A stretch of 32,000 bases of DNA. Origin: Candidatus Saccharimonadota bacterium. Lineage in GTDB: Bacteria; Patescibacteriota; Saccharimonadia; Saccharimonadales; UBA4665. Location: contig CP064992.1 of the NCBI GenBank assembly GCA_016699935.1, forward strand, positions 720,001 through 752,000, written 5' to 3'. A model generated the notes under the pieces. The model was not told the DNA's origin. It saw nothing but the letters and a program-made list of their open reading frames with translations, and did no database searches. Made by a program: the position numbers and the translations under genes. Position 1 is the stretch's first letter, and each line of letters opens with the position of its first letter. Shown piece after piece: positions 3,133 through 27,075 of the stretch.

Positions 3133-3140
3133 AACAGTAG

Positions 3141-3146: not shown

Positions 3147-3150
3147 GGTT

Positions 3151-6381: not shown

Positions 6382-6454
6382 GGTTAGTAGATAGAAGGTG
6401 ATAGGTAGTAGATAGGGTTATCCCAACTACCAACTACCAACTACCAACTACTCC
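6382..6454. repeat. Back-to-back inverted heptamer arrays: degenerate (TAGWAGR)x5 at 6382-6417, then (CCAACTA)x4 at 6423-6450
   Basis: Direct reading gives ggttagtagatagaaggtgataggtagtagataggg tta tc ccaacta ccaacta ccaacta ccaacta ctcc. The arms are about 70-85 percent complementary. Confidence 0.8.
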
Positions 6455-9769: not shown

Positions 9770-9779
9770 GCTGACTCAG

Positions 9780-9804
9780 CCCTTTGCCCTTTGCCCTTTG
9801 CCCT
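9780..9804 (+). repeat. Tandem heptamer array (CCTTTGC)x3.5
   Basis: Direct reading gives c cctttgc cctttgc cctttgc cct, immediately followed by TATAAT at 9806-9811. Confidence 0.9.
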
Positions 9805-9811
9805 ATATAAT
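9783..9811 (+). promoter_or_regulatory. Putative rseP promoter built from the heptamer array: TTTGCC, 17-nt spacer, TATAAT, with the ATG 8 nt downstream (predicted leaderless)
   Basis: tttgcc at 9783-9788, tataat at 9806-9811, then agaatcca and the ATG at 9820. Confidence 0.5.
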
Positions 9812-9819
9812 AGAATCCA

Positions 9820-10984
9820 ATGGCAGTTTTTATATTAGTTATGGGCTCGTGCTATTCCTTTTGCTCATCATCACGCATGAGATGGGGCATTTTTGGTGGC
9901 CAAGCGAAATGGGGTGAAAGCTGAAGAGTTTGGCATATTCTTCCCACCAAAACTCTGGAGTAAGAAGATGAAGGGCGGCTGGGATTTCACCATAAACGCA
10001 CTACCACTCGGTGGTTTCGTGAAGCTGAAGGGCGAACACGATAGCGACACCGAAAAGGGTAGTTTTGGCGCGGCCAGCGATTGGTCTAAGGCAAAAATCA
10101 TGCTGGCGGGTGTGGCGGTAAACCTCGTGACTGCACTGGTTTTGTTTACCATCCTCGCGCTCTTAGGTATGCCGAAGCTCGTCGATAACCAGTTCACCGT
10201 AGCCAGCGATACGAAGATATCCCGTTACGATGTCTTAGTCGGGTATGTTGAGGCTAAAACACCAGCCGCAGGGGCAGGGTTAAAAGAGCGAGATAAACTC
10301 CTCAGCTTTGCAACGGCACAAAAAACAGTCGAAATGAACGGCCAAAAGCTGTCAGAGGTTACAAAACAGTTTGCTGGACAAAAAGTGACAATCAGCTACG
10401 AGCGTGATGGGAAGGTGCGTTCCACGCAGGCAACGCTCCTTACGGCCAATGCTGTTGAGGCAAGCCGTAAAACAGACAATCCGAAGGGATACCTCGGTGT
10501 AGCGCCACAGGAAATCATCATCCGCAAATCTACGTGGTCGGCTCCGGTCGTTGCGGTTGGGTTGAGTGCGCAGTTTACCCAGCTGACGCTCAAAGGTATT
10601 GGTACGGCACTTGGTGGCCTCGGGGGCATCATTGCGGGCGGCGTTACAGGCAACACCGAAGCGCGACAGAAGGCGCAAACCGAAGCAAGCAGTCAGGTAT
10701 CTGGTCCACTCGGTATTTATTTCGTACTCAAGAGCGGCAGTTCGCTCGGTCTTCTTTTCATGCTTTTTATCATCGCTATCATATCGCTTACGCTTGCCAT
10801 TATGAACGTACTGCCCGTGCCAGCACTCGATGGTGGACGACTCTACATGATGCTCGCGAGTCGCTTAACCAAGCAGAAACGCCTGACGCCCAAGATGGAA
10901 GAGAACATCGTTGGGGCGAGTTTTATGCTCCTCATCGGCCTCATCATCCTAATCACCATCGTTGATGTCAAACGCTTCTTCTAA
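9820..10984 (+). CDS. rseP: RIP metalloprotease RseP (site-2 protease, M50) with a PDZ domain; two frame breaks in the first 75 nt
   Basis: Reads MAVFILVMGLVLFLLLIITHEMGHFLVAKRNGV... if GGG 9843-9845 is G4 and T5 9890-9894 is T6. The HEMGH zinc motif is at 9876-9890. The rest (track ORF 9893..10984) is intact and ends in TM helices with the NVLPVPALDGG motif. Confidence 0.9.
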
Positions 10985-11801: not shown

Positions 11802-11885
11802 CCAAGACTATAGAGTACAATAGGGCAATGCAACGAGCGTTCTTTTGGCCGAACACACGAACCATACCACCGCGGCGGTCTTGCG

Positions 11886-11920
11886 TTAACTCTTAACTCT
11901 TAACTCTTACCTCTTAAATC
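11886..11920 (+). repeat. Tandem heptamer array (TTAACTC)x3 plus variants TTACCTC and TTAAATC
   Basis: Direct reading. It is followed by CATAAT at 11922-11927. An AGGA SD sits 7 nt before the proS ATG. Confidence 0.9.
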
Positions 11921-11948
11921 TCATAATACATAACTCTAGGATTCCCCC

Positions 11949-13649
11949 ATGAAAGTATCACAAATAGTCACTCGTACCAGCAAAACCGCTCCTGCTGAGG
12001 AAGTTGCCAAAAACGCACAGCTGCTCATTCGCGCTGGGTATGTTTACAAAAATATGGCCGGAGTCTATTCGTACACACCGCTAGGTTTCCGTGTGCTAGA
12101 AAATATCAAACAGATTGTACGAGAAGAAATGGATGCTATTGGCGGGCAGGAGCTCATTATGAGTAGTCTGCAGCGCAAAGAAACTTGGGAACAAACCGGG
12201 CGTTGGGACGAAAAAGTTGTCGACATTTGGTTCAAATCGCATCTACAAGATGGCACCGAGGTTGGGTTTGGTTGGAGCCACGAAGAGCCAATCATCGAAA
12301 TGCTTAAGCAATATATAAGTAGTTATAAAGACCTGCCAGCCTATGTTTACCAGTTTCAGACAAAACTGCGCAACGAAGTGCGGGCCAAAAGCGGCATTTT
12401 ACGTGGCCGTGAGTTTGTTATGAAAGACATGTATAGCTGTTGCGTCGATCAAATGCAGCACGACGCATTTTATCAAGCGAGCATGGATGCCTACATGCGT
12501 GTTTTTGAAAGAGTTGGTTTGGGCGAAGACACATTCATCACCTATGCCAGTGGTGGGGCGTTTACTAAATTTAGCCACGAGTTTCAGACCATTTGTGACG
12601 CCGGAGAAGATTACATCTTTGTCGTTCCCAGCACCAAACAGGCTTTCAACGCTGAAATAGCCCCGGTTAAATCCGCCCCTGTTGAACAGCCAAATGAAGT
12701 AAAACCACTGGAATTTTTAGAAGATACCGAAACGACAGGAGTTGACGCACTAGTCGAGCGTCTAGGAATAAAGCTGTCATCTAGTACCAAAACCATGCTC
12801 TTCAGCAGCGACAAAGGGCTGATTGCGGCGGCCGTTCGCAGTGACTACAAACTGAACGAAGAAAAGCTAAAAGCGGTCGTGGACGCCGATTGGCTGCAAC
12901 TAGCCTCGGCCGATGAAGTTCGCGCGGCAACAGGGGCAGAGCTGGGCTTTGCTGGGCTATATAACTTGCCAGATAGTATAAAATGCTATGTCGACGAATC
13001 TTGTGAAGGCTTGGTCAATTTTGAAACAGGCGCCAACGAAACAGGCAAACACGCTTACAATGTGAACTGGGAGCGTGATGTTCAAAAACCAGATCAATTT
13101 TATGATATCAAGCTAGCAAAAACAGGCGATCTCTATCCTGAAACCGGTGAGGCCTATGAGGTACACAAAACAGCTGAGGTTGGAAACATTTTCAATTTTG
13201 GAACCAAAAAGAGTCAGGAAATGGATTTTGCCTTTACAAACGAGGCAGGTGAGCGGCAATTCGTCTATTTGGGCTCATACGGTATTGGTGTTACCAGGCT
13301 AATGGGCGTACTAGCAGAGAAAATGGCTGACGAACATGGACTGGTTTGGCCAGTCAATGTTGCACCTTATATGGTCTATCTTGTGCAAATTGGAAATGAA
13401 AACGAAGTAGTAAAAAGTACAGAAAATCTGTGCGAAATATTACAGTCTTGGGGGGTGAGTGTGCTGTATGATGACACGGACAAACGTCCTGGTGAGAAGT
13501 TCGCCGATGCTGATTTGCTTGGCATCCCGCACCGCGTTGTGGTCAGTACTAAAACAATAGAGGCAGGTAATTATGAGTATAAAGCGCGTACGTCAAGTGA
13601 TGTCGAGATGGTATCAATGGACAGACTCAAAAACATATTGACCCAGTAA
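11949..13649 (+). CDS. proS: Prolyl-tRNA synthetase (bacterial type, 566 aa)
   Basis: Intact ORF with class II motifs including GILRGREFVMKDMYS, the ...YLGSYGIGVTRLMG motif-3 region, and a C-terminal anticodon-binding domain. Confidence 0.9.
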   Translation: MKVSQIVTRTSKTAPAEEVAKNAQLLIRAGYVYKNMAGVYSYTPLGFRVLENIKQIVREEMDAIGGQELIMSSLQRKETWEQTGRWDEKVVDIWFKSHLQDGTEVGFGWSHEEPIIEMLKQYISSYKDLPAYVYQFQTKLRNEVRAKSGILRGREFVMKDMYSCCVDQMQHDAFYQASMDAYMRVFERVGLGEDTFITYASGGAFTKFSHEFQTICDAGEDYIFVVPSTKQAFNAEIAPVKSAPVEQPNEVKPLEFLEDTETTGVDALVERLGIKLSSSTKTMLFSSDKGLIAAAVRSDYKLNEEKLKAVVDADWLQLASADEVRAATGAELGFAGLYNLPDSIKCYVDESCEGLVNFETGANETGKHAYNVNWERDVQKPDQFYDIKLAKTGDLYPETGEAYEVHKTAEVGNIFNFGTKKSQEMDFAFTNEAGERQFVYLGSYGIGVTRLMGVLAEKMADEHGLVWPVNVAPYMVYLVQIGNENEVVKSTENLCEILQSWGVSVLYDDTDKRPGEKFADADLLGIPHRVVVSTKTIEAGNYEYKARTSSDVEMVSMDRLKNILTQ

Positions 13650-13725
13650 ACAAAACCCAGTAGTATAGCAAGACTAAACGACCAAGACCGGTTCAGCCAC
13701 ATCAGTGCAAAAGGAGGATATAGGT

Positions 13726-14182
13726 ATGAAGAAGTTATTTCATTTGACCCAGGAAGGTATAAAGAGCTTGAAGCCGAGAAGGCGGAGCTGCTTATAAGGA
13801 GGGTCGAAACGGCTGAGGCGATTAAGGTTGCTCGCGAGCTTGGTGACCTTCCGAAAACGCAGAGTATCAATCGGCACGAGCCGAGCAGGAGCGTAACGAT
13901 GGCCGGCTTGAGGAAATTGACCACATCCTCGCCAACGTGGAAGTCATAAAGGCCCGCAAGAGCAAGCAAGTTGGGCTTGGCTCTACCGTAACCCTGAAGC
14001 ACCCAAAGGGCAATGAAGTCACCGTTCAAATCGTCGGAACCATAGAGGCCGACCCGGCTGTCGATAAAATTTCCGACGAATCACCTATAGGCAAAGCGCT
14101 TCTTGGTAAAAAAGAAGGCGATTCGGTCGACATAGTCAAACCCGCTGAAACCATCACCTACCAAGTTATTGCAATTCGCTAG
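13726..14182 (+). CDS. greA: Transcription elongation factor GreA; two frame breaks in the N-terminal coiled coil
   Basis: Reconstructed as MKKLFHLTQEGIKELEAEKAELLIRRVETAEAIKVARELGDLSENAEYQSARAEQERNDGRLEEIDHILANVEVIK...SPIGKALLGKKEGDSVDI. The breaks are at A-run ~13760 and TT ~13848. AAGGAGG SD. Confidence 0.85.
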
Positions 14183-14185
14183 TCG

Positions 14186-14230
14186 CTACGAGCTTCGCAA
14201 CTGAGCAGCTGGCTGGTGCGAAACTCGTGG
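14186..14230 (+). terminator. Possible greA terminator hairpin
   Basis: ctacgagcttcgcaac (14186-14201) pairs with ggtgcgaaactcgtgg (14215-14230) at about 14 of 16 positions. The downstream sequence ttgctttacattt is only moderately T-rich. Confidence 0.35.
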
Positions 14231-14290
14231 TTGCTTTACATTTGTGCTTATTCGAGTAACATACTACTTATAAAGTAGGAGGGCAGCGGG

Positions 14291-15079
14291 ATGGACTCAA
14301 CAGAGGAAAATAGCACTAACGAGGTGAAAACATCTAGTACGAAAGCGGTAACACTGCGTGTAAACCCATGGTGGTTAAGTGCGGCTCTTGCGGTTGGGCT
14401 ACTTGCCGTTGTGGTACTGTGGCGCCCGTGGGATAGCCAGCCGAGTGCAGGCGATCGTACTGTAAGCGTGAGCGGGAGTGCAACACTCAAAGCCGAACCA
14501 GATGAATACGTCTTTTACCCAAGTTATGAGTTTAAAAATGCCGACAAGGCTACTGGACTCAAAGAGCTCACCGCCAAAAGCGATGAAGTAGTCGCTGGGC
14601 TTAAAAAAGCAGGTGTAGCCGACAAAGATATCAAAACAAATGCTAGTGGCTACCGAGACTATTACTATTTTGACCAAGAGGCAAAAACGCACACCTACAG
14701 TTTGCAAATCACCGCTACAACGCATACTCGTGAGACGGCGCAAAAAGCCCAAGATTATTTACTGACAACTGATCCAAGCGGGGCAGTGACGCCGCAGAGT
14801 ACCTTTAGCACGGCGAAACAGAAGCAGCTCGAGACACAAGGTCGTGACCAAGCTACCAAAGAAGCACGCGCCAAAGCCGACCAACAAGCTAAAAACCTTG
14901 GCTTCAAACTGGGTAAGGTGAAAAGCGTCGAAGATAGCAGCAATGCATATGGCGGACCGATACCGATGCTGACGATGGACTCAGCCAAATCGTCTGGTGT
15001 GAGTGAATCAAGTCTACCTGTCCAACCCGGCCAAAACGACCTAACCTACACCGTCCAGGTCACGTACTACATCCGCTAA
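14291..15079 (+). CDS. SIMPL (DUF541) domain protein with an N-terminal membrane anchor
   Basis: Intact 262-aa ORF with a TM segment (WWLSAALAVGLLAVVVLW). The core runs from SVSGSATLKAEPDEYVF to the end ...LPVQPGQNDLTYTVQVTYYIR, typical of the family. AGGAGGG SD. Confidence 0.75.
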   Translation: MDSTEENSTNEVKTSSTKAVTLRVNPWWLSAALAVGLLAVVVLWRPWDSQPSAGDRTVSVSGSATLKAEPDEYVFYPSYEFKNADKATGLKELTAKSDEVVAGLKKAGVADKDIKTNASGYRDYYYFDQEAKTHTYSLQITATTHTRETAQKAQDYLLTTDPSGAVTPQSTFSTAKQKQLETQGRDQATKEARAKADQQAKNLGFKLGKVKSVEDSSNAYGGPIPMLTMDSAKSSGVSESSLPVQPGQNDLTYTVQVTYYIR

Positions 15080-15130
15080 CGCTTATTTAGTTGAGTTGTC
15101 CGACAGTTGTAGATTAAAGAAGGCAAATTT

Positions 15131-15159
15131 TTGTGCTCTTGTGAGTCTTTCGGTACAAT
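15131..15159 (+). promoter_or_regulatory. Putative lysS promoter: TTGTGC, 17-nt spacer, TACAAT, with the ATG 10 nt downstream
   Basis: ttgtgc at 15131-15136, tacaat at 15154-15159, ATG at 15170, and no SD. Confidence 0.45.
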
Positions 15160-15169
15160 AGAATACGAT

Positions 15170-16741
15170 ATGCAGTGGTTAAATACGATTGTTGATGAGC
15201 TTATTGCTCGTGTGCCGGAAGGTGAGATTTTGCTGGAGTCTGGCGCGTCGCCTAGCGGGACGTATCATTTGGGGCATATGCGTGAGTTGTTGACGCCCGA
15301 TGCGGTGCTGCTGGAACTACGTCGCCGAGGTAGGCAGGCGCGTCACATTCACTTCGTCGATGACCTCGACGCCCTACGCAAAGTGCCGGTAAATATTCCT
15401 AGCGAGTACGAAAAGTACCTGGGCATGCCGCTGTGTGATATCCCGGCCGTAGATGGCAGCCAGCGCTCTTACGGTGACTATTTTCTAGATGGCTTCAAAC
15501 AGGCTGGGGAGCTACTGGGTATAGAAGTAGAATATTTGTACGCTCACGAAAAATATCGGGCAGGCTTTTTTGTGCCAGCTATAGAAAGAAGTTTAGAGCG
15601 TATACCACAAGCTCATGCTGCGTTAGAAGCAGTTTCGGGCCGTCAACTAGACGAACACTGGTCTCCGGTGCAAATCATGGAGCAGGGCAGGCTAAAAAAC
15701 CGTCAGTTTATTCGCCTTAACAAGTCAGATAAAACTATTGCGTACCAGTCTGCTGATGGTCAAGAACAAACTGTCGCGTATGATACCGGTCTAGTTAAGC
15801 TCGATTGGCGGCTCGACTGGCCTGGGCGCTGGTGGTTGCTCTGTGTCACAGCTGAACCATTTGGCCGCGATCATGCCAGTGCTGGCGGTTCATACGAAAC
15901 AGGAGCGCGCATGATGCAAGATGTCTACAGGCTCCAGCGCCATACCCCATTCCCTATGACTTTATAAATATGGCTGGTGATACGAAGAAAATGAGTGCTA
16001 GCAAAGGTACTGGTCTAGATGCAGTCGAAGGCGCTACCATTAGTATGCCGGCAGAAGTAGTGCGCTATTTTGTACTTGGTTCCGCCCCGAGCAAACGGCT
16101 GTATTTCGACCCTGTCGGAGGGTTGTAAGGCTGATGGATGAATATGCAGCGTTAGGCTGCCAAGCCAGATAAAACGCCCGAAGACGAGCAGCTACTGTAC
16201 ATTTGTACTCGCGGTAATAACCGACAAACGGTTAGCCGCGTACCTTTTAGCCAATATCTTGTGGCCTGCTACCAGAGCGAGTTTGCGTGATCCAGCTAAA
16301 ACTCTTGAGGTTATCAAGCGGACAGAACATGCCCAGGCAGCAGAGGAAGACCCCGAAATCATTATGCGCGAGTTGACTTTCATTGATGCGTGGTTAGAAT
16401 ATGCCGCCACCAGATGAAGTGAAATTCGCTTTGCGTGAACAGATAGAAAAAGTGAGTTTAGCGAAAATGAAGTGAAGCTATTGCTAACCTAGCGAAAGCG
16501 TTGCTGCTGCACCGGCCAATAGCTGAGGGGGACTATTTTCACCTAGCTCTCTATGCGCTCAAAGACGAGTTTGGCATGCGGCCAAAGATATTTTCTCGGC
16601 ACTATACCGCTTACTAATTGGTAAAACCAGTGGCCCCCGCGCCGGCTGGTTCCTCAGTATCCTCCCCGCGACTGGCTTATCTCTCGTCTAAAGCTGGAAA
16701 AAGTAAGAAACATTTACAAAAAGTTAAAGCGTTTGATATAA
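15170..16741 (+). pseudogene. lysS: Class I lysyl-tRNA synthetase (LysK type); intact to about 15930, then at least 5 frameshifts; 3' end uncertain (16691 or 16741)
   Basis: Class I features: SGASPSGTYHLGHMRE (HIGH-like), LDWRLDWPGRWW, EPFGRDHASAGGSYETG and KMSASKG (KMSKS). The tail reads ...ALYRLLIGKTSGPRAGWFLSILP. Confidence 0.8.
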
Positions 16742-16742
16742 T
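16714..16742 (+). promoter_or_regulatory. Putative vapBC promoter: TTACAA, 17-nt spacer, TATAAT, with the ATG 7 nt downstream (predicted leaderless)
   Basis: ttacaa at 16714-16719, tataat at 16737-16742, then gctttac and the ATG at 16750. Confidence 0.55.
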
Positions 16743-16749
16743 GCTTTAC

Positions 16750-16968
16750 ATGACATATACAGCAACAATATCTTCACAGGGACGAGGTGACCATACCGGC
16801 GAAGTACGGCGGCAGTTAGGGCTGCGAAGCGCAAGTGTGGTATTTGACGTAAAGACGACCAGCTAATTTTGCGGCGTGAGCCAACCCTTGAGGACATCAG
16901 GCTATCCTGAAGGGGACTGAAAAAAGTTATCAGATATCGAGTCGGAAAGAAACAATCCGTGGGCACAT
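16750..16968 (+). pseudogene. vapB: AbrB/SpoVT-type antitoxin (VapB-like) with several frame breaks and an unresolved 3' end
   Basis: Reconstructed as MTYTATISSQGR.VTIPAEVRRQLGLRSASVVFDVKDDQLILRREPTLEDIR..., showing the swapped-hairpin signature. It lies immediately upstream of a PIN gene. Confidence 0.6.
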
Positions 16969-17379
16969 TTGGCAATAGCCAGGATTTACGAACGCGTGGT
17001 TATTGATACGAAAATCATCCTGCGGTGTTTGCTGCAGGATAGCTCAACCCAGTCCCCTGAAGCCAGTCGGGTCATACTGGAAGCACCTAAGATCATCATA
17101 ACAGACGTGGTACTGATGGAATGTGCCTATGTGATGTCATTACTATACAAAAAAACACACCAGCAGATTGCCTTGTCCCTTGGGCTTTTTATAAAAAGAA
17201 ATAATGTTGTTTACGAAGCAGGGCTAGCAGAGTATTACCTAGGTCTATACGTTCTTGGAAGCCTGGATTTAGCCGACTGCTATCTGGTTGCATATGCTTT
17301 AAAACATAACGAAACTCTACAAACTTTCGATAAAAAACTGCAGAGAGTATATGAGGCTGAGAGAGCGAAAGTGGCCTGA
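16969..17379 (+). CDS. vapC: PIN-domain ribonuclease toxin (VapC-like)
   Basis: Intact ORF with VVIDTKIIL (first acidic residue), VLMECAYV, SLDLADCYLVAYA and LQTFDKKL. The start is TTG 16969 or GTG 16996. Confidence 0.75.
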   Translation: MAIARIYERVVIDTKIILRCLLQDSSTQSPEASRVILEAPKIIITDVVLMECAYVMSLLYKKTHQQIALSLGLFIKRNNVVYEAGLAEYYLGLYVLGSLDLADCYLVAYALKHNETLQTFDKKLQRVYEAERAKVA

Positions 17380-17747
17380 TGGAAGCCACAGATAAGTTGT
17401 TTCATGAGCTAATAGACAGGGCGTTTGATTCTTTGCCGCAGATCCACCGCGACCGGGTGAGGAACGTTGCGATTGTGACGGCCGATGAACCTACACCGCT
17501 GCAAAGACAAGAGCTGAAACTGCACTGCAATCAGACATTGCTTGGGTTATACAGTGGTATCCCTTTGCCGCAGCGACAGGGCAGAGAACCGCTCGTGCCA
17601 GATGTCATTACGCTTTTCAAGCTACCGCTACTGGCAGAGAGTGATGATGAAGCAGCACTTTACGAGAACATTCGGCACACACTATGGCATGAGGTCGCCC
17701 ACTACTACGGGCTTGACCATGACCAGATTCACAAACTCGAGAGATAG
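17379..17747 (+). CDS. Small zincin-like metallopeptidase-family protein (DUF1025-like)
   Basis: 122 aa with a C-terminal HEVAHYYGLDHDQI motif (HExxH). Its ATG overlaps the vapC TGA (TGATG), which suggests translational coupling. Confidence 0.65.
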   Translation: MEATDKLFHELIDRAFDSLPQIHRDRVRNVAIVTADEPTPLQRQELKLHCNQTLLGLYSGIPLPQRQGREPLVPDVITLFKLPLLAESDDEAALYENIRHTLWHEVAHYYGLDHDQIHKLER

Positions 17748-17819
17748 ATCGTCCTCACACCCGCACTTAAGTATCGAAAATAAACTTCAAAATGTAGCAT
17801 TTTGATAAAGGGAGGGTAA

Positions 17820-17859
17820 AAATAAACCTCTCGTGGTTAAAACCACGAGAGGTTTATTT
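17820..17859. terminator. Bidirectional intrinsic terminator between convergent genes
   Basis: A perfect 19-bp inverted repeat, aaataaacctctcgtggtt / aaccacgagaggtttattt, separated by 2 nt. It is flanked by an A-run upstream and a T-rich run downstream, so it works on both strands. Confidence 0.8.
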
Positions 17860-17869
17860 GTTAAATGTG

Positions 17870-18410
17870 TCAGTGTACTTTATTTTGCAGTTTTTCAGAG
17901 CTGGGGCCTTTGCCCAAATAGGCTGGTCGTAGCTGGAAGAGGATCCACCAGCCAATTGCAGTACCAATGAGCCCACCTATAAAAGAACCTGGGCCGCGAC
18001 CGTCTATAAAAAGCATTACAACTGAATACACAATATTCACGAGGCTAGCGTAAAAAGTAGATCCCATCCTCGCTTGGCTTTCTCTTTGAGCGGGCTATAT
18101 GCCATAAAGTAGATTATGGCAGTGACTATCGAGAAGCCGACCGCCAGCCAGACCCAAAGTGTCATATCGCTGGTGGCAACCGCTTTGCCACCGTATGCAC
18201 GGCTGAAATCATTGCCCACTTTACAACGGTATCTGCAGAATGTGCAAGTTGCCATAGCACTAATGCACTCCATGCTGTCAATACAGCGCCGACAAGAGTC
18301 AGGATGGGTGCGTATTGTACCAAAAAGTCATACAGACCCTTTGGCATTTTGGGCGCTTGCTTGCCAAACACATCATTAAGCTGTTTTTCCAAACCATTGA
18401 CATCCGCCAT
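17870..18410 (-). CDS. Hypothetical small membrane protein split into three ORFs by two frame breaks
   Basis: ORFs 18162..18410, 18037..18273 and 17870..18067 are consecutive on the minus strand and all hydrophobic. AAGGAGG SD 5 nt upstream of the ATG at 18410, with TGTACAAT further upstream. Confidence 0.55.
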
Positions 18411-18518
18411 CTCAACCTCCTTAGTTATGCTGGTATTGTACAGCTATTAATCGCTCGTATCGAGTAAGATATATCACAATCAGTAAACATTATTTTGGAG
18501 CCAGCATATTATTCGAAG

Positions 18519-19720
18519 CTAATCTGTACCCGTAAAATGCGTTATATTACTTTGCGGCGAAACTTGGTATAGGGCAGTTTTTGTTTGAACAAGCCCAAGA
18601 AATCCGTCGTATTGCGGCGATATCAAAGTATTGATGTCGTGTAGGTGCGACGAAAACAGCGCGGTTCTACCTAGATATTCTTTAAATGGGTTCCACCAAC
18701 GTGTAGCTCTGATTAATTCACTCTCTTGTATAATCCCAAGCCTACGCAGTAAGTTGGGCTGAGTTTCGCAAAGAATAGTGCTTAATCCTACTTCGTTGCC
18801 CGCTTCACGTAGAGCATTAAAATCGACGGATGTTGTTATATCATATTCGCCGGGTAGGTATTCAAGAATGTCACCTCTCATTTGCCTGCCAGATTGGTAT
18901 AGTCTTGGTGCAAATTGTCTTTGGGCTGAAGCAGGGTCAACCGAACTGAATCCGTAGTCAATAGTTATTACACTCCCAGCATCAAGCATTCGTGCAACAT
19001 TATGTTGCCAATGACGCAAGGTGGGAGAGGCGTTCACTACAACACCTTCAGGAACGGTGTCTAAGACCGAAAGGTAGAACGGATTGTATAGTTCGGGATC
19101 AAGCTTCATGTCAACTTCTACAAGGCGCTTATTTGCCCTATCTATACCCACACCAACTTCAATTATTTCACCGCCGATCCTCTTTATTCGGTGTACTGGA
19201 AAAGTGTCAGGTAGTTCATTTGATATGACCACTCCCATCATTCCGGATAGAGCTACATCTTCCGCAGACGCTTGATGCCACACTATACCCCTATCGCCAG
19301 TAGTATGTTGTTGCTTCTTAATCATTGCTTCGGAAACTTCAACTATTTGATACTGTAGTGCCTGCGCTAGCTCTGGATAAGAGAGTCTAAGCCTATCAAT
19401 TATGTGATTAGCCATAATTCCAGTACCCGCACCCATTTCCACAACATCGAAACAAGATGGCTCACCAAGTGCTACCCAAACATCATGTATTCCTCGTGCC
19501 AAAGTTCCTCCAAAATGGGGTGCTCGCCTGGTGCGGTTTTAAAATCGCCGCGTAAGTTGTCTATCTCGGCCTTACCGGCACCATAATAACCCCTTGGCGA
19601 CGTAAGACATACTTCCATATATTGGCTAAAAGGAATCGCACCATCAGGAGACGCATTTATACCGTCAACGATGATTTGCAGAAGGTCTTCTTTTTCAAGT
19701 TCCTGGATGGCGTTGGTCAT
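18519..19720 (-). CDS. MidA/NDUFAF7-like (DUF185) SAM-dependent methyltransferase; one frame break at 19512-19515
   Basis: Sequence reads IPFSQYMEVCLTSPRGYYG...GDFKTAPGEHPIFGGTLARGIHDVWVALGEPSCFDVVEMGAGTG once the A4 run (T4 in the sense strand) is read as 5 bases. Confidence 0.7.
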
Positions 19721-19728
19721 ACTAGTAT

Positions 19729-19793
19729 ATTATAACATAAAATCACTACTTGGTCACGTTATTCTATTTCAATGTAGGGTCTACTGGTATAAT
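19729..19793. promoter_or_regulatory. Divergent promoter pair: TATAAT (19729-19734, minus strand) 8 nt from the MidA-like ATG, and TGGTATAAT (19785-19793, plus strand) 7 nt from the HAD ATG
   Basis: Read directly on both strands. Neither gene has an SD sequence. Confidence 0.55.
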
Positions 19794-19800
19794 TTACCAT

Positions 19801-20429
19801 ATGCGGGCGGTGATTTTGATTTTGATGGGACTATTGCGGATAGCTTGCCGGCATTGCTACGGCTGTACGACGATGTGCATGGAAAGCCGGTCAAGCGTAC
19901 CCAAGAAGCAGTCGATAGCATGCGGAACAAATCGATGTACCAGATTGCCCGCGAAACGGGTTTGCCTATCTGGAAAATCGTCTGGTTGGCGGTGCGTGGG
20001 CGGCGCATGTTACGACGGCATTTACGAAGTATACGGGTGTATCCTGGGGTCGCTGAGCTTATTCGTGACCTCTATGAAGCTCGCGTTAAGCTCTTTGTGG
20101 TGAGCACGAACCACGGCGCAAACGTGCAGAAATATCTTGAGTGGCACGATCTTGACAGCTACTTCGACGGTATTTATGGTGGGGCTCACTTCTGGTCTAA
20201 GGCGAGTACTATGCGCCGTGTTATGAAGCGTGAAGGTCTCGATACGTCACAACTGTGGTGTGTAGGCGACGAAAAGGTTGACGTAGTCTCGGCTCGTGGG
20301 GCGGGGCTGCGAATTATTTCTGTGACGTGGGGCTACAGTAGTAAACATGGCCTGGAATTGCTGAAGCCAGATAAGCTAGTGACGACAGTAGATGATTTGC
20401 GGAAGGTTTTGAGCCAGTGGATGAAGTAG
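19801..20429 (+). CDS. HAD-superfamily hydrolase (phosphoglycolate-phosphatase-like); one frame break at T-run 19814-19817
   Basis: Reads MRAVIFDFDGTIADS (DxDGT motif I) if T4 is T5. Other motifs are VVSTN (motif II) and a VGDEKVDV motif IV-like element. Confidence 0.75.
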
Positions 20430-21772
20430 TCATTGGAAAACTTGTGCACGGTGGGCAGGGGCTCGGCACGTTACCCGATGGCCGGAAAGTGTTTGTATGG
20501 AATGCGCTGCCAGGTGAAACAGTACGGGTGCGTCTCATTAAGCAAAAACGCTCGTACGCCGAGGCGATAGCCGAGGCAATAGTAGTCGCCTCACCAGAAA
20601 GAATCGAGCCGCTTGAGGCAAACTATCTGGCGACAAGCCCGTGGCAGATGATGACGTTTGAGGCCGAAAACCGTTACAAAGCCGATATAGTCAAAGAGCT
20701 ATACACCCAGGCCAAACTAGATATTTCTCCTTTCATTGAAACTACTGTCTTAGAAAATGCAACCGGAAACGGCAAAATCACTTTGTCTCCCTCCGCGTTT
20801 GCATACCCACCTAGGGCTTCCCACTATAGGAATAAAATGGAGTATTCATTCTGGGGAGACGAAGACGGCCTGCACCTGGCGCTTCACCAGCGTGGCAGTC
20901 ACGGCAAACAAATAGTTTCGGGTAGCGCGCTGGCTTTGCCGGCGGTCGACGTGGCAGCCCGTGTGGTGCTAGCAGAACTGACGAGACTCAAGGTGAGGGC
21001 GGGCGACCTCAAAACGCTCGTTGTGCGTTGCGACCAGTATGGTGCTGCTGTCGCCGCGCTTTTTGTGAAACCAAGTAAATTCCCCAGATTAAAACTGCCA
21101 TCCCAGGCGAAACCATCATCCCAAAAGGACAGTTCTGTGAGTGAGGGTGGTGGCGGATTGAGGGGGCTGCGAGTGTATCATTCGAATCCGAAGTCACCGG
21201 CATCGGTTAGGACAAAACTGATATACGAGCTTGGTGATTGCGGGCTTGCAGATTCGCTACTCGGCAAAGTGTTCCACTACGATGTCGACAGCTTTTTTCA
21301 GGTGAATGTGCCGGTGTATGAGCAGGCGCTTGAGACTATTCGTACATACTGCCAGGGTGACCCAGTCGATATGTATGCTGGGGTAGGGACGATAGGACTG
21401 AGTGTGGCAAAAAAGCATGTGACGCTCGTAGAGTTGGATCCGGCAACTGCCGCTATGGCACGCCTCAATGCGTCAAGGACGGACCCTGACGCAAGGGTAG
21501 TTGAGGCATCGACCGAAAAGGCGCTCGAATACATTACTGCAGAGCAACCAGTTATTTTTGATCCTCCACGTGCTGGGTTGCATGCGTCAGTCGTCAAGCG
21601 TTGCTTAGAAGCAAAACCGCCGCAAATTATTTATCTAAGTTGCAATCCAGCCACCCAAGCGCGCGACTTGGCGCTGTTGCAGGCTGAGTACGCCGTAAAG
21701 CATTTCACTATTTTCAATTTTTTCCCACGTACCCCGCATATTGAGACCCTGGTAGTACTAGAATTCAGGTGA
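20417..21772 (+). CDS. TrmA/RumA-family class I SAM-dependent RNA (uracil-5) methyltransferase with an N-terminal TRAM-like domain
   Basis: Intact 451-aa ORF with the motifs FFQVN, DMYAGVGTIG, IFDPPRAGL and YLSCNPAT. Its start overlaps the HAD gene's stop. Confidence 0.8.
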   Translation: MDEVVIGKLVHGGQGLGTLPDGRKVFVWNALPGETVRVRLIKQKRSYAEAIAEAIVVASPERIEPLEANYLATSPWQMMTFEAENRYKADIVKELYTQAKLDISPFIETTVLENATGNGKITLSPSAFAYPPRASHYRNKMEYSFWGDEDGLHLALHQRGSHGKQIVSGSALALPAVDVAARVVLAELTRLKVRAGDLKTLVVRCDQYGAAVAALFVKPSKFPRLKLPSQAKPSSQKDSSVSEGGGGLRGLRVYHSNPKSPASVRTKLIYELGDCGLADSLLGKVFHYDVDSFFQVNVPVYEQALETIRTYCQGDPVDMYAGVGTIGLSVAKKHVTLVELDPATAAMARLNASRTDPDARVVEASTEKALEYITAEQPVIFDPPRAGLHASVVKRCLEAKPPQIIYLSCNPATQARDLALLQAEYAVKHFTIFNFFPRTPHIETLVVLEFR

Positions 21773-21780
21773 AATAAACG

Positions 21781-21808
21781 GGAACTCTTAACTCTGAACT
21801 CTTAACTC
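21781..21808 (+). repeat. Tandem heptamer array of the TTAACTC family (GGAACTC TTAACTC TGAACTC TTAACTC)
   Basis: Direct reading. It is followed by TG TATACT (21811-16), then gcctcc and the ATG at 21823. TTAACT at 21788-21793 lies exactly 17 nt upstream of the -10 box. Confidence 0.9.
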
Positions 21809-21822
21809 TGTATACTGCCTCC

Positions 21823-22612
21823 ATGAGTTATATGAGGGGGCGGTCACGGCCGTATGAGCCAGGGCAAACTGAGCCGTATAAAGTGAGTCGAAGCAAGATA
21901 GAGCTGTATATGCAGTGTCCACGCTGCTTCTGGCTCGATGTGCGGCACAAGATTACCCGGCCTAGCAGTCCGCCATTCAACATAAACAAAGCTATCGATG
22001 AGCTTTTCAAAAAAGAGTTCGATGTGTACCGCCAGAATGGCAAACCACACCCGCTTATGAAGCAATTTGGAGTCGATGCCGTTCCGTATACCCACAAAGA
22101 CCTCGATACGTGGCGGCATAACTTCACAGGGGTGACCACACTGCATGCGCCGACGAACCTACACGTATTCGGTGCCGTCGACGATGTGTGGGTAAACCCA
22201 GCGGGCGAGCTCATGGTGGTAGATTACAAGGCTACCGCAAAAGCGGAGCCGGTCAAAGCACTTGGCCCGGAGGGCGGTTGGCAAGACATGTACCGTCGCC
22301 AGATGGAGATTTACCAGTGGTTACTGCGCCAAAATGGGTTCTCGGTTAGCGACACAGGCTATTTTGTGTATGCCACGGGTAACCCCGGCAAAGATGCCTT
22401 CGATGGGATTGTCGAGTTTGAAACACACGTTTTCCTCACCACGGCACAAGCGACTGGGTAGAGCAAACATTGCTAGACATGAAACAGTGCATGGAAAGCG
22501 ATACAATGCCACCTGTCGGCACCGCAGCCATGGGCGGCACATGAATTTTTGCAGCTACGCTCGCTCTCGCACCGAGCTCACGCTTGCAGCCATCCAAAAC
22601 AAGAACTCTTAA
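21823..22612 (+). CDS. PD-(D/E)xK nuclease-family protein (Cas4/RecB-nuclease-like) with two frame breaks near 22455 and 22545
   Basis: Contains the N-terminal Cys pair YMQCPRCFW, the core GAVDDVWVNPAGELMVVDYKAT (D...D/E-x-K) and YRRQMEIYQWLL (QxxxY). After reconstruction the tail reads DWVEQTLLDMKQCMESDTMPPVGTAAMGG.C.FCSYARSR (CxxC). The stop lies inside the next heptamer array. Confidence 0.7.
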
Positions 22613-22643
22613 CTCTTAACTCTTAACTCTTAACTCTTAACTC
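22602..22643 (+). repeat. Tandem heptamer array: AGAACTC followed by (TTAACTC)x5
   Basis: Direct reading. It is followed by TG TATACT (22646-51), then actaatc and the ATG at 22659. TTAACT at 22623-22628 lies 17 nt upstream of the -10 box. Confidence 0.95.
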
Positions 22644-22658
22644 TGTATACTACTAATC

Positions 22659-23901
22659 ATGTTAGACATACAATTTATACGAGATAACGCTGAGCTGGTC
22701 GAGCGGAAGGCGCATGAAAAGGGCTACAATAACGTCGATGTGACGGCATTGCTTGCAACTGACGAAGCGCGGCGAGCGCAGTTAACGGCGGTCGAAGAGT
22801 TGCGGGCACAGCGCAATGCACTGACCGAATCGATGAAGGGTCAAAACCGACAGCAGAGCAGATAGAGCAGGGAAAGGCCCTAAAAGAAAAGATTGCCAAA
22901 ATAGAAAATGAGCTGAAAGTCACAGAGGAAAAATGGCAATCCCAGATGCAAATGGTGCCAAACCCAACGTTTGACGATGTGCCGCTAGGTGGCGAGGAAG
23001 ATAGTGTAGAGATTAAGCAAGTTGGCGCACAGAACAAGGGCGCCACAGACCACCTGGACTTCGCAGTCGCGCGCGACTGGGTTGATTTTGAGCGCGGAGC
23101 GAAGGTGGCTGGGGCGAAGTTCTACTACCTTAAGGGCGATCTCGCGTTGCTAGAAAACGCGATTACGCAGTTTGCACTCGATTTTGTACTCAAAAAGGCT
23201 TTACCTACATGACTGTGCCGCATATGGTGAATTCACGGGTGGCAATGGGGGCGGGTTTTTCTCCGCGCGGTGACGAAAGCGGCAATGAGTATTATGTCGA
23301 AGGCGAAGACTTAACGCTCATCGGCACCGCTGAAGCGCCACTGACTGGATACCATGCAGATGAAATTATCGGTGAAGATGCCTTGCCCTTGAAATATGTT
23401 GGTTACAGCCCATGCTACCGTCGCGAAGCAGGCACATACGGTAAGCACACGCGGGGCTATTCCGCGTACACCAATTCAATAAACTTGAGATGTATATTTT
23501 TGTGCACCAGAGCAGAGCCGAGACATGCACGAGTTTATCCTCGCGATCGAAGAAGAACTTTGGCAAGCGTTGGGCATACCGTATCATGTGGTTAATATTG
23601 CGTCGGGCGACCTGGGCGCGCCAGCGGCGAAGAAATATGATGTCGAGTACTGGTCGCCAGTAGATGAAAAGTACCGCGAGTTGACGAGCTGCAGCAACTG
23701 TACTGATTTTCAGGCACGCAATCTCAACATCCGTATTCGTCGTAAAGACGGCAAAGTTGAGGTGCTCCATACGTTAAATGGCACTGCTGTGTCGCTGGCT
23801 CGTTCACTTATCGCAGTCATTGAGCATTACCAACAGAACGTGGTACACTGAAGGTACCAGATGCATTGCGTCCATACATGGGCGGCAAAACTGAGCTATA
23901 A
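22659..23901 (+). pseudogene. serS: Seryl-tRNA synthetase, broken by about 5 frameshifts as assembled
   Basis: The fragments join as MLDIQFIRDNAELV..., ...VPLGGEEDSVEIKQVG, ...FYYLKGDLALLENAI..., TVPHMVN...LIGTAEAPLTGYH...[34 protein letters not shown]..., ...ASGDLGAPAAKKYDVEYW...ELTSCSNCTDFQARNLNIR...LNGTAVS and ...LKVPDALRPYMGGKTEL*. Confidence 0.9.
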
Positions 23902-23916
23902 ACTAAAAGGAGCTAT

Positions 23917-24272
23917 ATGATTCATACCGTCAGTGCGGAAGGTTTTGACCTGAGCCCAAAATTGCAGAAGTACGCCGCAGGCAAAATAAAAGATATCGAA
24001 AAATACATCCCGCGCAAGGCCCGCGAAGCTGCAGTACTCGCAGTCCATTTTAAAGAAAGTAAAAAGAGCCAGGAAAAAACCTGTACATTGGCGCTCGAGT
24101 TGCCGCACGGTACGCTAGCCTCTAAGAAACAACTACCCACATGTATGCTGCATTTGATATAGCAGTCGTTGAAATTCGCCGACAAATTGCTGATTACAAA
24201 GGTAAACATAGCACATATGGTTTACGTCATCGGCTGTTTCGCCGCGCAAAGCGTGAACAAGCAGTTGTCTGA
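23917..24272 (+). CDS. hpf: Ribosome hibernation promoting factor / RaiA family (short form); one frame break near 24123-24130
   Basis: Sequence MIHTVSAEGFDLSPKLQKYAAGKIKDIEKYIP... continues as ...ETTTHMYAAFDIAVVEIRRQIADYKGKH...* in the shifted frame. AAAGGAG SD. Confidence 0.75.
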
Positions 24273-24407
24273 AGTTTGTGTTACTTTCGCGTCAAAGTTT
24301 TTACCGAATTTGAAATATTTATGACATTTACTCTCGCATCCCCGAGGCAAACAGGGTACAATAGTTGGTGACTAATCTACAGGCTTTTAGGGAGGTGTAG
24401 CAAGCTT

Positions 24408-27007
24408 ATGAATAGAGTATTAAAACGTATCTTGGGTGACCCGCAAGCAAAGACCATTAAACGATTGCGTAAGCGCGTCAGGGTCATAAACGAACTTGCG
24501 CCCAAGTATGAAAAAATGACCGACAAACAGCTGCGCGAGCAAACAGACAAACTGCGAGCACGGCTCAAGAAAGAATCCCTGGATGGTATTTTACCCGATG
24601 CCTTCGCACTTGTGCGTGAGGCGGCGACGCGTACGCTCAAACAGCGTCACTACGATGTACAGCTTATCGGTGGTATGGTGCTCCACGAAGGTAATGTCAG
24701 TGAAATGAAAACTGGTGAAGGTAAGACGCTCGTTGCAACCGCACCAATGTTTTTGAATGCTCTTGGGGGCAAGGGTGCCCACCTCGTGACGGTGAACGAC
24801 TATCTTGCGCAGCGCGATGCCGGCTGGATGGGCCAGGTGTATCATTTCTTGGGCCTTTCGACCGCCGTTATTATGGCCGATCGATCATATCTGTACGACC
24901 CGAAATATGTGAACGAAGAACACGAAGACGAACGTTTTCGTCACCTGAGATCGTGCAGCCGTCAGGAAGCATACGCGGCAGATATAACCTATGGCACAAA
25001 CAATGAATTCGGCTTTGACTACCTACGCGACAACATGGTGCGCGAGACAGATCAGCTTCGTCAGCGCGAACTTAACTATGCTATCGTGGACGAAGTTGAC
25101 TCCATCCTTATAGACGAGGCGCGCACACCACTTATCATCAGTGCGCCGAGCGTTACCCCAGGGAATGCGTACGCACAGTTTGCAAAAACGGTGCTCCAGC
25201 TACTGCCAAGCACTATGAAGTCGACGAGAAGCGAAAAACGGTTGTGCTGAATGACTCTGGCGTGGACAAGATTGAAAAAGTGCTTGGGATTGAGAACTTA
25301 TACGGTAGTGATAATATTCGCACGCTGTACCACCTTGAGCAGGCGCTTCGGGCACAGACGCTCTTTAAACGAGACAAAGATTACGTGGTTACGAACGATG
25401 GAGAGATTGTCATCGTCGATGAATTTACTGGTCGCCTGCTTGCTGGACGTCGCTACAACGAAGGGCTACACCAGGCTATTGAGGCGAAAGAAGGTGTGGA
25501 AGTGCAGGAAGAGTCTATGACACTTGCAACCATTTCATTCCAGAATTACTTCCGTTTGTATGACAAGCTTTCCGGTATGACTGGCACGGCCTTAACAGAG
25601 AGCGAAGAATTCCATCAGATATACAAGCTTGATGTCGTGGAAATACCGGCTAACCGCCAAATAGTACGCAATGACCGCAGTGATCGCATCTACCGAAACG
25701 AATCGGCCAAGTTCAAGGCGATTGTTCGTGAGGTGAAAGAACTCTATCAAAAGGGTCAGCCGGTGCTCATCGGTACAGTTTCTATAGAAAAGAACGAAAA
25801 ACTTGGCGGTATGCTCACGAAGGCCGGGGTGCCGCATCAGGTACTGAACGCGAAGAATAATGAGCGCGAAGCGAAAATCGTCGCGAAAGCAGGTGAAAAA
25901 GGTGCGGTGACACTCGCGACAAACATTGCCGGCCGTGGAACAGACATTGTACTTGGTAAGGGAGTAAAGGAACTTGGCGGCCTGTTTGTAATAGGTAGTG
26001 AACGGCACGAATCACGGCGCATAGACAATCAGTTGCGTGGACGCGCTGGGCGTCAGGGCGATCCAGGGGCTACGCAATTCTACGTCAGTACCGAAGACGA
26101 CCTTATGCGCATATTTGGTGCAGAGCGAATTGGTCGAGTGCTTGACCGGCTCAAGGTTGATGAAGGTGTGCCTATCGAAAACCGTATGATTACCCGCAGT
26201 CTTGAAGCGGCACAAAAAAAGGTGGAAGGCTTTCACTTCGACCAGCGTAAAAATGTGGTCCAGTACGATGATGTGATGAACCGTCACCGTAAAGCTACCT
26301 ATGCGATGCGTAAGGAAGTATTGCGAGCAGAGGATATTAGCAAGCGAATAAAAGCGTATATAGAGGAAGAAATTAGTTTGCTCGCAGACTCACCATTGCG
26401 TTCGACAGAAGAATTTGAACCAGCAGTACAAGAACTATTACCTCTCGACGAAGCTGCGCTCGACCGTATTTTTTCTAAGACACAGGTTACTGTCAAACCG
26501 GTACTCATCGAGGAGGCGAAAGAGTTGTATGAAGGCCGTGAGAGTGCATTCACGTCCGAAATCATGCGAAAGGTCGAGCGTGATATTTACCTGCAAATCC
26601 TCGATAATCTTTGGATGCAACACCTCGAAAACATGGATCACTTGCGTGAAGGTATTGGTTGGATGAGCGTAGGACAGCGCGATCCACTGGTTGAATACCG
26701 TCGCCGCGGACAGATGATATTTGAACAAATGCAATACGCGCTTCGCCATGATGTCGTTCGTGCAATATTCCATGCAGAACCGATAGAAATGGACGAGTTG
26801 GATCGCCCGGTTGAAACTGAGCTGACACGTGCAGCACGTAGCTCTATTAGCAACGCTGGACAAATTTTGGACGATGAAAAACAGTTCGATGAAGAGGACT
26901 TTACTGGGGAGAAAAAACCATCCCAGGTGAAAGCGACATCCAAAGATCGTGCCAAAGCCAATAAACGTGAGCGTCAACGTAAGGCAAAAGCGAGGAAAAG
27001 GAAATAG
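24408..27007 (+). CDS. secA: Preprotein translocase ATPase SecA; one frame break near 25200
   Basis: Motifs [12 protein letters not shown] (Walker A), [18 protein letters not shown] and [10 protein letters not shown]. ORFs 24408..25250 and 25244..27007 join as ...[26 protein letters not shown]. The C-terminus is Lys/Arg-rich with no zinc-finger Cys motif. Confidence 0.95.
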
Positions 27008-27030
27008 GGCCTAAAGGGCAAAGGGCAAAG
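27007..27030 (+). repeat. Short heptamer array GGGCCTAAA GGGCAAA GGGCAAA G, the reverse complement of the CCTTTGC unit at 9780-9804
   Basis: Direct reading, immediately after the secA stop codon. Confidence 0.8.
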
Positions 27031-27075
27031 TCGGTTTGACTTAGCCTATAGTCCTTAAGCCCTATGCTTTGAACT

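Follow-up and report, generated by a model that had tools for sequence, protein, structure and literature searches.

TTAACTC heptanucleotide arrays in a Candidatus Saccharimonadales genome as probable tandem expansions of a leaderless-gene promoter

We analysed a 32,000-nucleotide stretch of a Candidatus Saccharimonadota genome (contig CP064992.1, positions 720,001 to 752,000 of the forward strand; hereafter the window), in which three tandem arrays of the heptanucleotide TTAACTC lie upstream of proS, a PD-(D/E)XK nuclease gene and serS. We propose, with a probability of about 0.6, that a sigma-70-type promoter, used for leaderless genes in one sub-clade of Candidatus Saccharimonadales, gave rise by tandem expansion to the arrays at serS and at the nuclease gene. 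The predicted core promoter would cover 35 bp: TTAACT(C) as a -35-like element, a 17-bp spacer with a proximal (G/T)TAACTC unit followed by TG, TATACT as the -10 box, and the start codon 6-7 nt further on. The array before proS appears to be a related repeat in a different setting, either part of a transcribed leader or a weak secondary promoter.

Tandem Repeats Finder and direct reading placed all three arrays in the same orientation on the + strand, each ahead of a + strand gene (Table 1), as the first-pass annotation, made from the sequence alone, had reported. Arrays 2 and 3 share an identical end, CTCTGTATACT, and have 20 nt in common, AACTCTTAACTC-TG-TATACT. At both serS and the nuclease gene a consensus promoter scan found TTAACT exactly 17 nt upstream of TATACT. 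TATACT is a sigma-70 -10 hexamer that matches TATAAT at five of six positions and is invariant in all orthologues; TTAACT matches TTGACA at four of six positions, without the G at position 3, and is conserved at exactly 17 bp. At serS (7 nt) and the nuclease gene (6 nt), and likewise at gltX and purC in other genomes (7 nt each), the distance from the -10 box to the start codon falls within 6-8 nt and a Shine-Dalgarno sequence is lacking; this does not apply to proS (Shine-Dalgarno-like site, ATG 27 nt past the array) or hisS (AGGAGG, 9-10 nt). The first-pass annotation had read the three loci as one module, (TTAACTC)n-TG-TATACT-N6/7-ATG, in which TTAACT always lies 17 nt from the -10 box. The shared junction is present at serS and the nuclease gene, and the spacing also holds in five further serS lineages, but the proS array lacks the TGTATACT junction and is followed instead by CATAAT, with a 16-nt spacer from TTAACT.

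Syntenic serS loci from five further lineages, among which the neighbouring RlmD-like protein is only ~70-75% identical, were aligned. The invariant blocks were the -35-like CTTAACTC and TAACTCTGTATACT; the heptad between them, the 6-7 nt before ATG and the upstream flank were variable. In every lineage 21 nt separate the first T of TTAACT from the TG, which gives a 17-nt -35/-10 spacer whether or not the units form a tandem array (Table 1). Judged from the alignment, this block pattern is the putative footprint of a promoter with -35 and -10 boxes 17 bp apart, driving a leaderless gene. Since the relatives keep this architecture without tandem repetition, the promoter would be older than the array; it looks ancestral at serS, and the array looks like its later expansion or homogenisation. 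Only the three proximal units appear to be constrained at serS-type promoters. Deeper relatives lack the motif at serS and have GGC-TATAAT-N6-ATG (L136) or CGG-TATACT-N10-ATG (L137). In L129 the nuclease gene ends within the serS -35 hexamer, which contains its stop codon, and the entire 31-nt intergenic spacer corresponds to the predicted promoter. The middle-unit variant TTAACCC is shared by L134 at serS (3598-3618) and L150 at hisS (9959-9979), that is, by different genes in different lineages.

The 20-nt junction of the nuclease-gene promoter is identical to the serS junction 800 nt downstream. In all relatives compared, a TAACTC unit was absent before the counterpart of the nuclease gene, where the leaderless -10 boxes CGG-TATACT-N7, TTGG-TATACA-N8, TAGAAT-N6 and TACAAT-N7 were found, indicating that the module at this gene is specific to the window's lineage. 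The true period of array 2 is 14 nt, GAACTCTTAACTCT being repeated twice. The first units of array 3 supply the TAA stop codon of the nuclease gene (22610-22612), whose C-terminus aligns up to 22603.

The junction recurs at other genes, all within Saccharimonadales. Among the matches listed in a scan of species-representative genomes for (TTAACTC)3, the unit occurred in many phyla (Nostocales, Bacteroidales, Acidobacteriota and others) and at three Saccharibacteria loci, of which only L012/L140, the hisS upstream region, continues with TGTATACT. The 14-mer TAACTCTGTATACT was found in 22 fetched loci, every one from Saccharimonadales, and among the matches listed this junction was present in 0 of 117 TTAACTC-array loci of other phyla. 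Two further species, with HisS identities of 78% and 75%, carry the same CTC-TG-TATACT junction before hisS. A metagenome scan for the 20-nt junction returned two short contigs, L121 (gltX, N7-ATG) and L122 (purC, 7 units, N7-ATG), and the viral contigs scanned gave no match. The full junction was seen at five gene families (serS, hisS, gltX, purC and the nuclease gene), and its arrays in relatives at hisS, gltX and purC have 3 to 7 units, none fewer than three. The promoter reading is supported for serS and the nuclease gene and can be extended to hisS, gltX and purC in relatives; proS departs from the module as first described, and hisS differs from it in its longer spacing and AGGAGG. Copy number varies between species with the junction unchanged (3 versus 5.9 at serS; 3, 4 and 4.7 at hisS), which agrees with the earlier proposal that the spacing stays constant as copy number changes. 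Where 2-3 assemblies of one species span the array (L129/L130; L146/L147/L149), they agree in copy number, and five Logan contigs break off within it.

Aminoacyl-tRNA synthetase genes make up three of the five full-junction families, or four of six when the proS array is counted, against ~2% of such a genome, in a small sample that was partly chosen post hoc (serS and proS in the window, hisS in L140, L146 and L150, gltX in L121 and L088). The motif was absent from lysS and tyrS in the fetched loci. In the hisS region, six independent short-read assemblies (contig starts of L141-L145 and L148) are broken exactly inside the TTAACTC array. TTAACTC arrays are thus systematic contig ends in metagenome assemblies and would be under-counted in surveys based on metagenome-assembled genomes.

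Promoter usage in the clade was examined at eight Saccharimonadales loci with 141 called genes. A TANNNT box ends 6, 7 or 8 nt before the start codon in 17, 12 and 9 cases, respectively, versus ~2-3 at each other position. In bacteria generally, the start sites of transcription cluster around 7 bp downstream of the -10 box (PMC12641261), and a leaderless mRNA signature of this kind is known from Actinobacteria (PMC3898074). Many -10 boxes of the clade carry a TGn extended -10 (TGG-TATACT, TGC-TATAAT and similar), and promoters with TGn have -35 matches at chance level (mean 2.5 versus 3.6 of 6). Promoters without TGn include TTGACA-17-TAATAT, TTGACA-17-TACAAT and TTGACT-18-TATCAT; these boxes indicate that the clade's polymerase reads TTGACA-like -35 boxes, and promoters lacking TGn tend to have one. 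Since the array promoters have CTG rather than TGn, a -35 box would be expected in them.

On the expanded-promoter reading, RNA polymerase holoenzyme would use TTAACT as -35 and TATACT as -10, and the transcripts would be leaderless, beginning at or beside the ATG. With a heptamer at the -35 position and another in the proximal spacer, 14 bp apart, slippage or mispairing could homogenise the middle 7 bp and add units upstream, so that a promoter could become the seed of a repeat array. Three or more units abutting TG-TATACT would always rebuild the promoter, with a -35/-10 spacing independent of copy number, so that slippage at three or more units would be harmless and arrays would persist. 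Selection would act on the three proximal units only, and units beyond the third would be tolerated, adding at most AT-rich upstream DNA. The earlier view of the array itself as the promoter is retained in part: a promoter is predicted at serS and the nuclease gene, but it appears to be ancestral and the array secondary.

Table 1. Features of the window and corresponding features in related loci.
Feature	Locus	Position	Strand	Details
TTAACTC array 1	window	11886..11921	+	5.1 copies: three perfect units, then TTACCTC, TTAAATC; upstream of proS
TTAACTC array 2	window	21782..21810	+	3.9 units, GGAACTC TTAACTC TGAACTC TTAACTC; before nuclease gene
TTAACTC array 3	window	22604..22644	+	5.9 perfect copies; before serS
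Predicted serS promoter	window	22623..22651	+	-35-like TTAACT 22623-22628; 17-nt spacer of array units plus TG (22644-22645); -10 TATACT 22646-22651, then 7 nt (ACTAATC), ATG 22659
serS	window	22659..23900 (end approximate)	+	leaderless arrangement; at least 3 frameshifts; Seryl_tRNA_N, E = 2.8e-14
Predicted nuclease-gene promoter	window	21788..21816	+	TTAACT 21788-21793; 17-nt spacer; TG 21809-21810; TATACT 21811-21816, then 6 nt (GCCTCC), ATG 21823
PD-(D/E)XK nuclease gene	window	21823..22612	+	PDDEXK_1 match; two frameshifts; stop codon inside array 3
TACAAT box and proS upstream open reading frame	window	11816..11896	+	conserved TACAAT 11816-11821, 6 nt, leaderless 22-codon frame 11828-11896 (MQRAFFWPNTRTIPPRRSCVNS, then stop)
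Possible weak proS-proximal promoter	window	11900..11927	+	TTAACT-16 nt-CATAAT; weaker than the other two, not conserved in relatives
proS	window	11949..13649	+	AGGA-N7-ATG; has a leader, not leaderless
TAGTTTG array	window	2860-2893		4.9 perfect copies, inside prfA (RF1) coding sequence (- strand gene 2080-3132)
CCAACTA array	window	6423-6451		before rpsB
GCCCTTT array and promoter	window	9779..9822	+	array 9779-9804 (3.7 copies), A, TATAAT 9806-9811, 8 nt, ATG 9820 of site-2 protease gene
AAAGGGC array	window	27013-27030		between secA and M16 peptidase gene
serS upstream	window			(TTAACTC)5.9-TG-TATACT-actaatc-ATG
serS upstream	L129/L130			ctc-TTAACTC TTAACTC TTAACTC-TG-TATACT-agacgc-ATG (exactly 3 units)
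serS upstream	L134/L135			TTAACTC TTAACCC GTAACTC-TG-TATACT-agtttt-ATG
serS upstream	L125/L126			TTAACTC TTTAGCG GTAACTC-TG-TATACT-gaaaac-ATG
serS upstream	L123 and L131			TTAACTC CC(G/A)GTAC GTAACTC-TG-TATACT-gaagcc-ATG
hisS upstream	L140			4.7 units, then TG-TATACT-AGGAGGCAT(T)-ATG
hisS upstream	L146/L147/L149			gTAACTC plus 3 units, then TG-TATACT-AGGAGGCAT(T)-ATG
hisS upstream	L150			TTAACTC TTAACCC TTAACTC, then TG-TATACT-AGGAGGCAT(T)-ATG
proS upstream open reading frame	L137	about 1660-1730		MKATFSILTCMIPPRR, then stop
proS upstream open reading frame	L123	about 2760-2840		MKRMYIHYHGSRSLPRRRYL, then stop
proS upstream open reading frame	L129	about 2975-3050		MKRYLAKLLQCPMPSLR, then stop
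secA-M16 array	L123	18715-18762
secA-M16 array	L131	18719-18759
secA-M16 array	L129	about 17085-17130
secA-M16 array	L125	about 10185-10232

As repeats, the arrays stand well above chance. The two-unit pattern TTAACTCTTAACTC, with up to 2 mismatches, has 12 matches in the window versus 0.18 expected from shuffles, and the hexamer TAACTC is not enriched in the window outside the arrays. Exact arrays of period 7 number 6 in the window, against 0-1 for each other period from 4 to 12. TTAACTC is one of several heptamer units in the window, the others being TAGTTTG, CCAACTA, GCCCTTT and AAAGGGC. With a head-to-tail 7-nt unit, at least three copies, several unit families in one genome and a mostly intergenic position, the arrays belong with the heptanucleotide long simple-sequence repeats (LSSRs), which resemble the short tandemly repeated repetitive (STRR) sequences. 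A stretch of 178 kb of Saccharimonadales DNA, 88% of it coding, holds 21 exact period-7 arrays. Of these, 14 fall wholly within intergenic DNA, and for most the next co-oriented start codon follows after less than 50 nt. The TTAACTC arrays of L014 and of L088 at 2069-2106 do not face a gene.

No secondary structure or self-complementarity was found in the TTAACTC arrays, and Rfam at gathering thresholds gave no family match anywhere in the window, which argues against a structured RNA element or a terminator. A T-box or other known RNA leader was rejected on these grounds, and a terminator or hairpin role was rejected because of the missing self-complementarity and a terminator scan that did not exceed the shuffled expectation. 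A coding repeat was rejected as well, since the arrays hold stops in all frames and give upstream open reading frames only their last 2-3 codons and a stop. Three TTAACTC units suffice to put TAA in every frame of both strands, and upstream frames regularly terminate inside an array: the nuclease gene (22604-22612) and the proS upstream frame (11886-11896) in the window, and an M15 peptidase gene in L140 (9950-9965), a PIN gene in L134 (3598-3611) and rsmH in L014 (1195-1215).

Another Saccharimonadales genome, L088, has four TTAACTC arrays. Two of them lie 33-44 nt upstream of TGG/AGG-TATACT boxes without abutting them. L088 contains three copies of a small element bounded by inverted TTAACTC-type arrays (2069-2410, 3590-3864 and 5418-5755), with a core of ~200-280 bp shared among the copies and inverted arrays 203-276 nt apart; the pair 3590-3625 / 3829-3864 is 97% complementary at a distance of 203 nt. 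The arrays of the element point outwards to the flanking genes, and its appearance resembles a miniature inverted-repeat transposable element. Its core was absent from the window and all other loci compared.

Several points weigh against an expanded promoter. The G at position 3 of the -35 box is important in E. coli, and it is the base that TTAACT, with its four of six matches, lacks. The TG abuts TATACT directly (positions -14/-13), one position off the classical TGn register, and the invariance of the proximal TAACTC is atypical of a promoter spacer, so that another binder may act there. Many promoters of the clade have no recognisable -35 box, and the 9-10 nt with a perfect AGGAGG between TATACT and ATG at hisS fit a simple leaderless start poorly. 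Perfect arrays can persist by slippage alone, without selection. Furthermore, the L014 array overlaps the end of rsmH in the opposite orientation and faces no gene, the L088 array at 2069-2106 faces no gene either, and one of the four L088 arrays faces the 3' end of a sortase gene.

A rival reading is that the arrays are neutral simple-sequence repeats, generated by slippage and surviving mostly in intergenic DNA, with TG-TATACT alone as the promoter and TTAACT not a -35 box. We consider this unlikely. It would account for the several unrelated heptamer units in the window and its relatives, for the different units at the orthologous secA-M16 site (AAAGGGC in the window, CTACAAA in L123), for the clade promoters without a recognisable -35 box and for the arrays of L014 and L088 that face no gene; heptamers are also the most over-represented long repeats in many bacteria, possibly via slippage (PMC4679880 and PMC4692102, both citing Mrazek 2007). 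On the other hand, TTAACTC is invariant 17 bp upstream of TATACT in array-less lineages whose neighbouring 7 bp are randomised, no independent instance falls below three units or changes its phase to the -10 box, and the array promoters lack the TGn that accompanies -35-less promoters in the clade. The invariance of the proximal TAACTC, as strict as that of the -35 and -10 boxes, would also suit operator sites of a putative regulator that co-controls a synthetase-rich gene set, the arrays being multimerised sites overlapping the promoter, and heptameric direct repeats overlapping -35 regions are known as regulator sites in Streptomyces (PMC5930380). This seems quite improbable: the excess of synthetase genes comes from the small and partly post hoc sample described above, the motif is missing from lysS, tyrS and the serS of deeper relatives, neighbouring sites at a 7-bp period lie on different faces of the helix, and no candidate regulator was found.

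A role in the RNA, in which the arrays would form an unstructured leader and either modulate the start of translation or terminate translation coming from upstream, similar to the proposal for the TAACTGA repeats of Beggiatoaceae, is more improbable still. In its favour, array 1 follows a conserved TACAAT box and an upstream reading frame and would become part of the proS leader transcript, the arrays lack structure as RNA, and their stops in three frames do end upstream frames (nuclease gene, proS upstream frame, L140 peptidase, L134 PIN gene). At serS, the nuclease gene, gltX and purC, however, a -10 box lies between the array and the ATG, 6-7 nt from it, so the array is outside a transcript started there and cannot overlap a ribosome-binding site; such a role is plausible only for proS. 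Least probable of all is an origin of the arrays as ends or solo remnants of a small mobile element with outward-facing TTAACTC arrays scattered into intergenic regions. The three L088 copies, confined to that locus, and the lineage-specific nuclease-gene promoter with its 20 nt identical to serS would be consistent with it, but the L088 core is absent elsewhere and the serS promoter architecture predates the arrays. Since the window arrays also have no repeated DNA beside them, a mobile-element origin was rejected for them. An extension of the expanded-promoter reading, which we regard as doubtful, is that three or more TTAACTC units followed by TG-TATACT might be a portable, slippage-proof Saccharimonadales cassette, which could have spread by ectopic conversion or L088-type mobile elements, replaced older promoters as at the nuclease gene, and might preferentially drive serS, hisS, gltX and proS as a co-regulated set through RNA polymerase or a TAACTC-binding factor.

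The proS locus differs from the other two. Array 1 lies between a short upstream open reading frame, whose stop codon is inside the array, and proS; 27 nt separate the array from the proS ATG, and an AGGA Shine-Dalgarno-like site precedes this ATG. In all lineages examined except L136, the upstream gene is directly followed by a TACAAT box, then 6-8 nt and a short open reading frame; in L136 TACAAT-N8 runs straight into proS. AGGA-N7/8-ATG precedes proS in all lineages compared. None of the relatives has an array before proS; only TTAAnCC-like remnants are present, such as TTAATCC TTAACCG in L129 and TTAAATC in L137, compared with TTAAATC in the window. If proS is transcribed from the TACAAT promoter of the upstream frame, array 1 is probably transcribed within the proS leader, and it may also act as a weak TTAACT-16-CATAAT promoter. 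The upstream frames end rich in Pro and Arg in four lineages (TIPPRRSCVNS, MIPPRR, SLPRRRYL and CPMPSLR, each followed by the stop codon), and in three of these a small CCGC-N4-GCGG hairpin, with T-rich sequence after it, overlaps the Pro-Arg codons. The frame could be a proline-sensing leader peptide or attenuator of the prolyl-tRNA synthetase gene. A proline-sensing attenuator was not supported, since the CCGC-N4-GCGG hairpin, predicted in L123 and L137, folds no better than shuffles.

STRR heptanucleotide repeats were reportedly described from cyanobacteria by Mazel in 1990, and to our knowledge they have had no established function since. We take the TTAACTC unit to differ from those of STRR1-3, and with a Saccharimonadales host the arrays fall outside the strict class, that of heterocystous cyanobacteria. 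They share with LSSR and STRR repeats the head-to-tail 7-nt units, several families per genome, the intergenic position, and a length and sequence that vary between related species at one site, and among the matches listed TTAACTC itself forms arrays in Nostocales, Bacteroidales and other phyla. Unlike those repeats, the array in this member of the candidate phyla radiation (CPR) stands in fixed phase with TG-TATACT and a start codon 6-7 nt on. Among long simple repeats, heptanucleotide arrays are the most over-represented class in many bacteria; they are strongly intergenic in Nostoc and Xanthomonas and have no established function (Mrazek 2007 via PMC4679880; PMC4692102).

The TAACTGA repeats known from Beggiatoaceae, Cyanobacteria and Bacteroidetes immediately precede start codons, in forward orientation, and have a proposed translational role (MacGregor 2015, PMC4679880). 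TTAACTC arrays resemble them in the TAACT core, in their forward orientation ahead of unrelated genes, some of them essential, and in a comparable phyletic spread, TAACTGA having 2-6 copies. They are not of the same type: the unit is TAACTCT rather than TAACTGA, and whereas TAACTGA abuts the start codon and overlaps the expected ribosome-binding site, here TG-TATACT and 6-7 nt intervene. This -10 box between array and ATG points to transcription initiation rather than translation.

Repeats are also found within the -35/-10 spacers of surface-protein genes in Neisseria and Haemophilus. Such promoter repeats are known mainly as slippage switches. In Haemophilus influenzae hmw1A and hmw2A, an (ATCTTTC)n array between promoters P2 and P1 tunes expression by copy number (PMC8262952, PMC12721329). 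The present arrays share with these a slippage-prone 7-bp tandem unit within a promoter region, but in phase-variable promoters copy number shifts spacing or leader length, whereas here any array of at least three units leaves the sequence from -35 to ATG identical, and the core promoter would be copy-number independent. The genes differ as well, being housekeeping genes (tRNA synthetases) rather than surface antigens, with no within-species copy variation seen in 2-3 assemblies per species. Compared with the leaderless promoters of Actinobacteria and similar groups (PMC3898074, PMC4633059), the likeness lies in a TANNNT box ending ~6-8 nt before the start codon, the lack of a Shine-Dalgarno sequence and the many genes concerned; there, the -35 region is not a tandem repeat.

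The first-pass annotation knew of no heptamer repeats described as promoter modules; this novelty does not hold, since heptamers before start codons and in promoter regions have already been described (PMC4679880, PMC8262952). The finding is a variation on known heptamer repeats and promoter repeats, with no new category and no new machinery. What the geometry here would do is the opposite of a switch: because the repeat itself carries the -35 box, and three units together with TG yield the 17-bp spacer, slippage would be tolerated. The genes behind this arrangement are essential housekeeping genes of a reduced CPR genome. Our literature search found no paper on repeats or promoter structure, including the leaderless arrangement, in Saccharibacteria. 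If the expanded-promoter reading is right, heptanucleotide arrays would gain a concrete, testable function in at least one clade, and Saccharibacteria would gain a first promoter model (leaderless starts, a TATACT -10 and an optional TTGACA-like -35) that would aid gene-start annotation and the design of genetic tools.

Between the arrays lies the gene of an RlmD-like protein whose closest relatives come from Candidatus Saccharimonadales / Saccharibacteria, the nearest being only ~75% identical. Several genes contain frameshifts that their intact orthologues lack: serS has at least 3 and the nuclease gene 2, and hpf, secA, prfB and the site-2 protease gene are affected as well (window 21823-29489 and near 9885, where the site-2 protease gene misses a G). 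Since essential genes are unlikely to be pseudogenes, these breaks look like uncorrected long-read homopolymer errors in an unpolished assembly, and with so many of them the exact array copy numbers could be slightly off.

The other heptamer units occupy varied positions. At the site-2 protease gene, the GCCCTTT array places TTGCCC 16 nt ahead of the -10 box; relatives have TGG-TATACT or a Shine-Dalgarno sequence there and no array. The secA-M16 spacer carries heptamer arrays in every lineage of the sub-clade, built from two unrelated units: AAAGGGC-type in the window, L125 and L134, and CTACAAA-type in L123, L131 and L129. In the L123 spacer a TAGTTTT array adjoins the near-complementary CTACAAA array, and an AAAGGGC array is also present in L140 (2323-2348). 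The TAGTTTG array is unusual in that a heptamer is kept in frame inside the essential prfA, and a degenerate copy of it lies just upstream of the prfA start (3137-3170), adjoining TATACA-N8-ATG.

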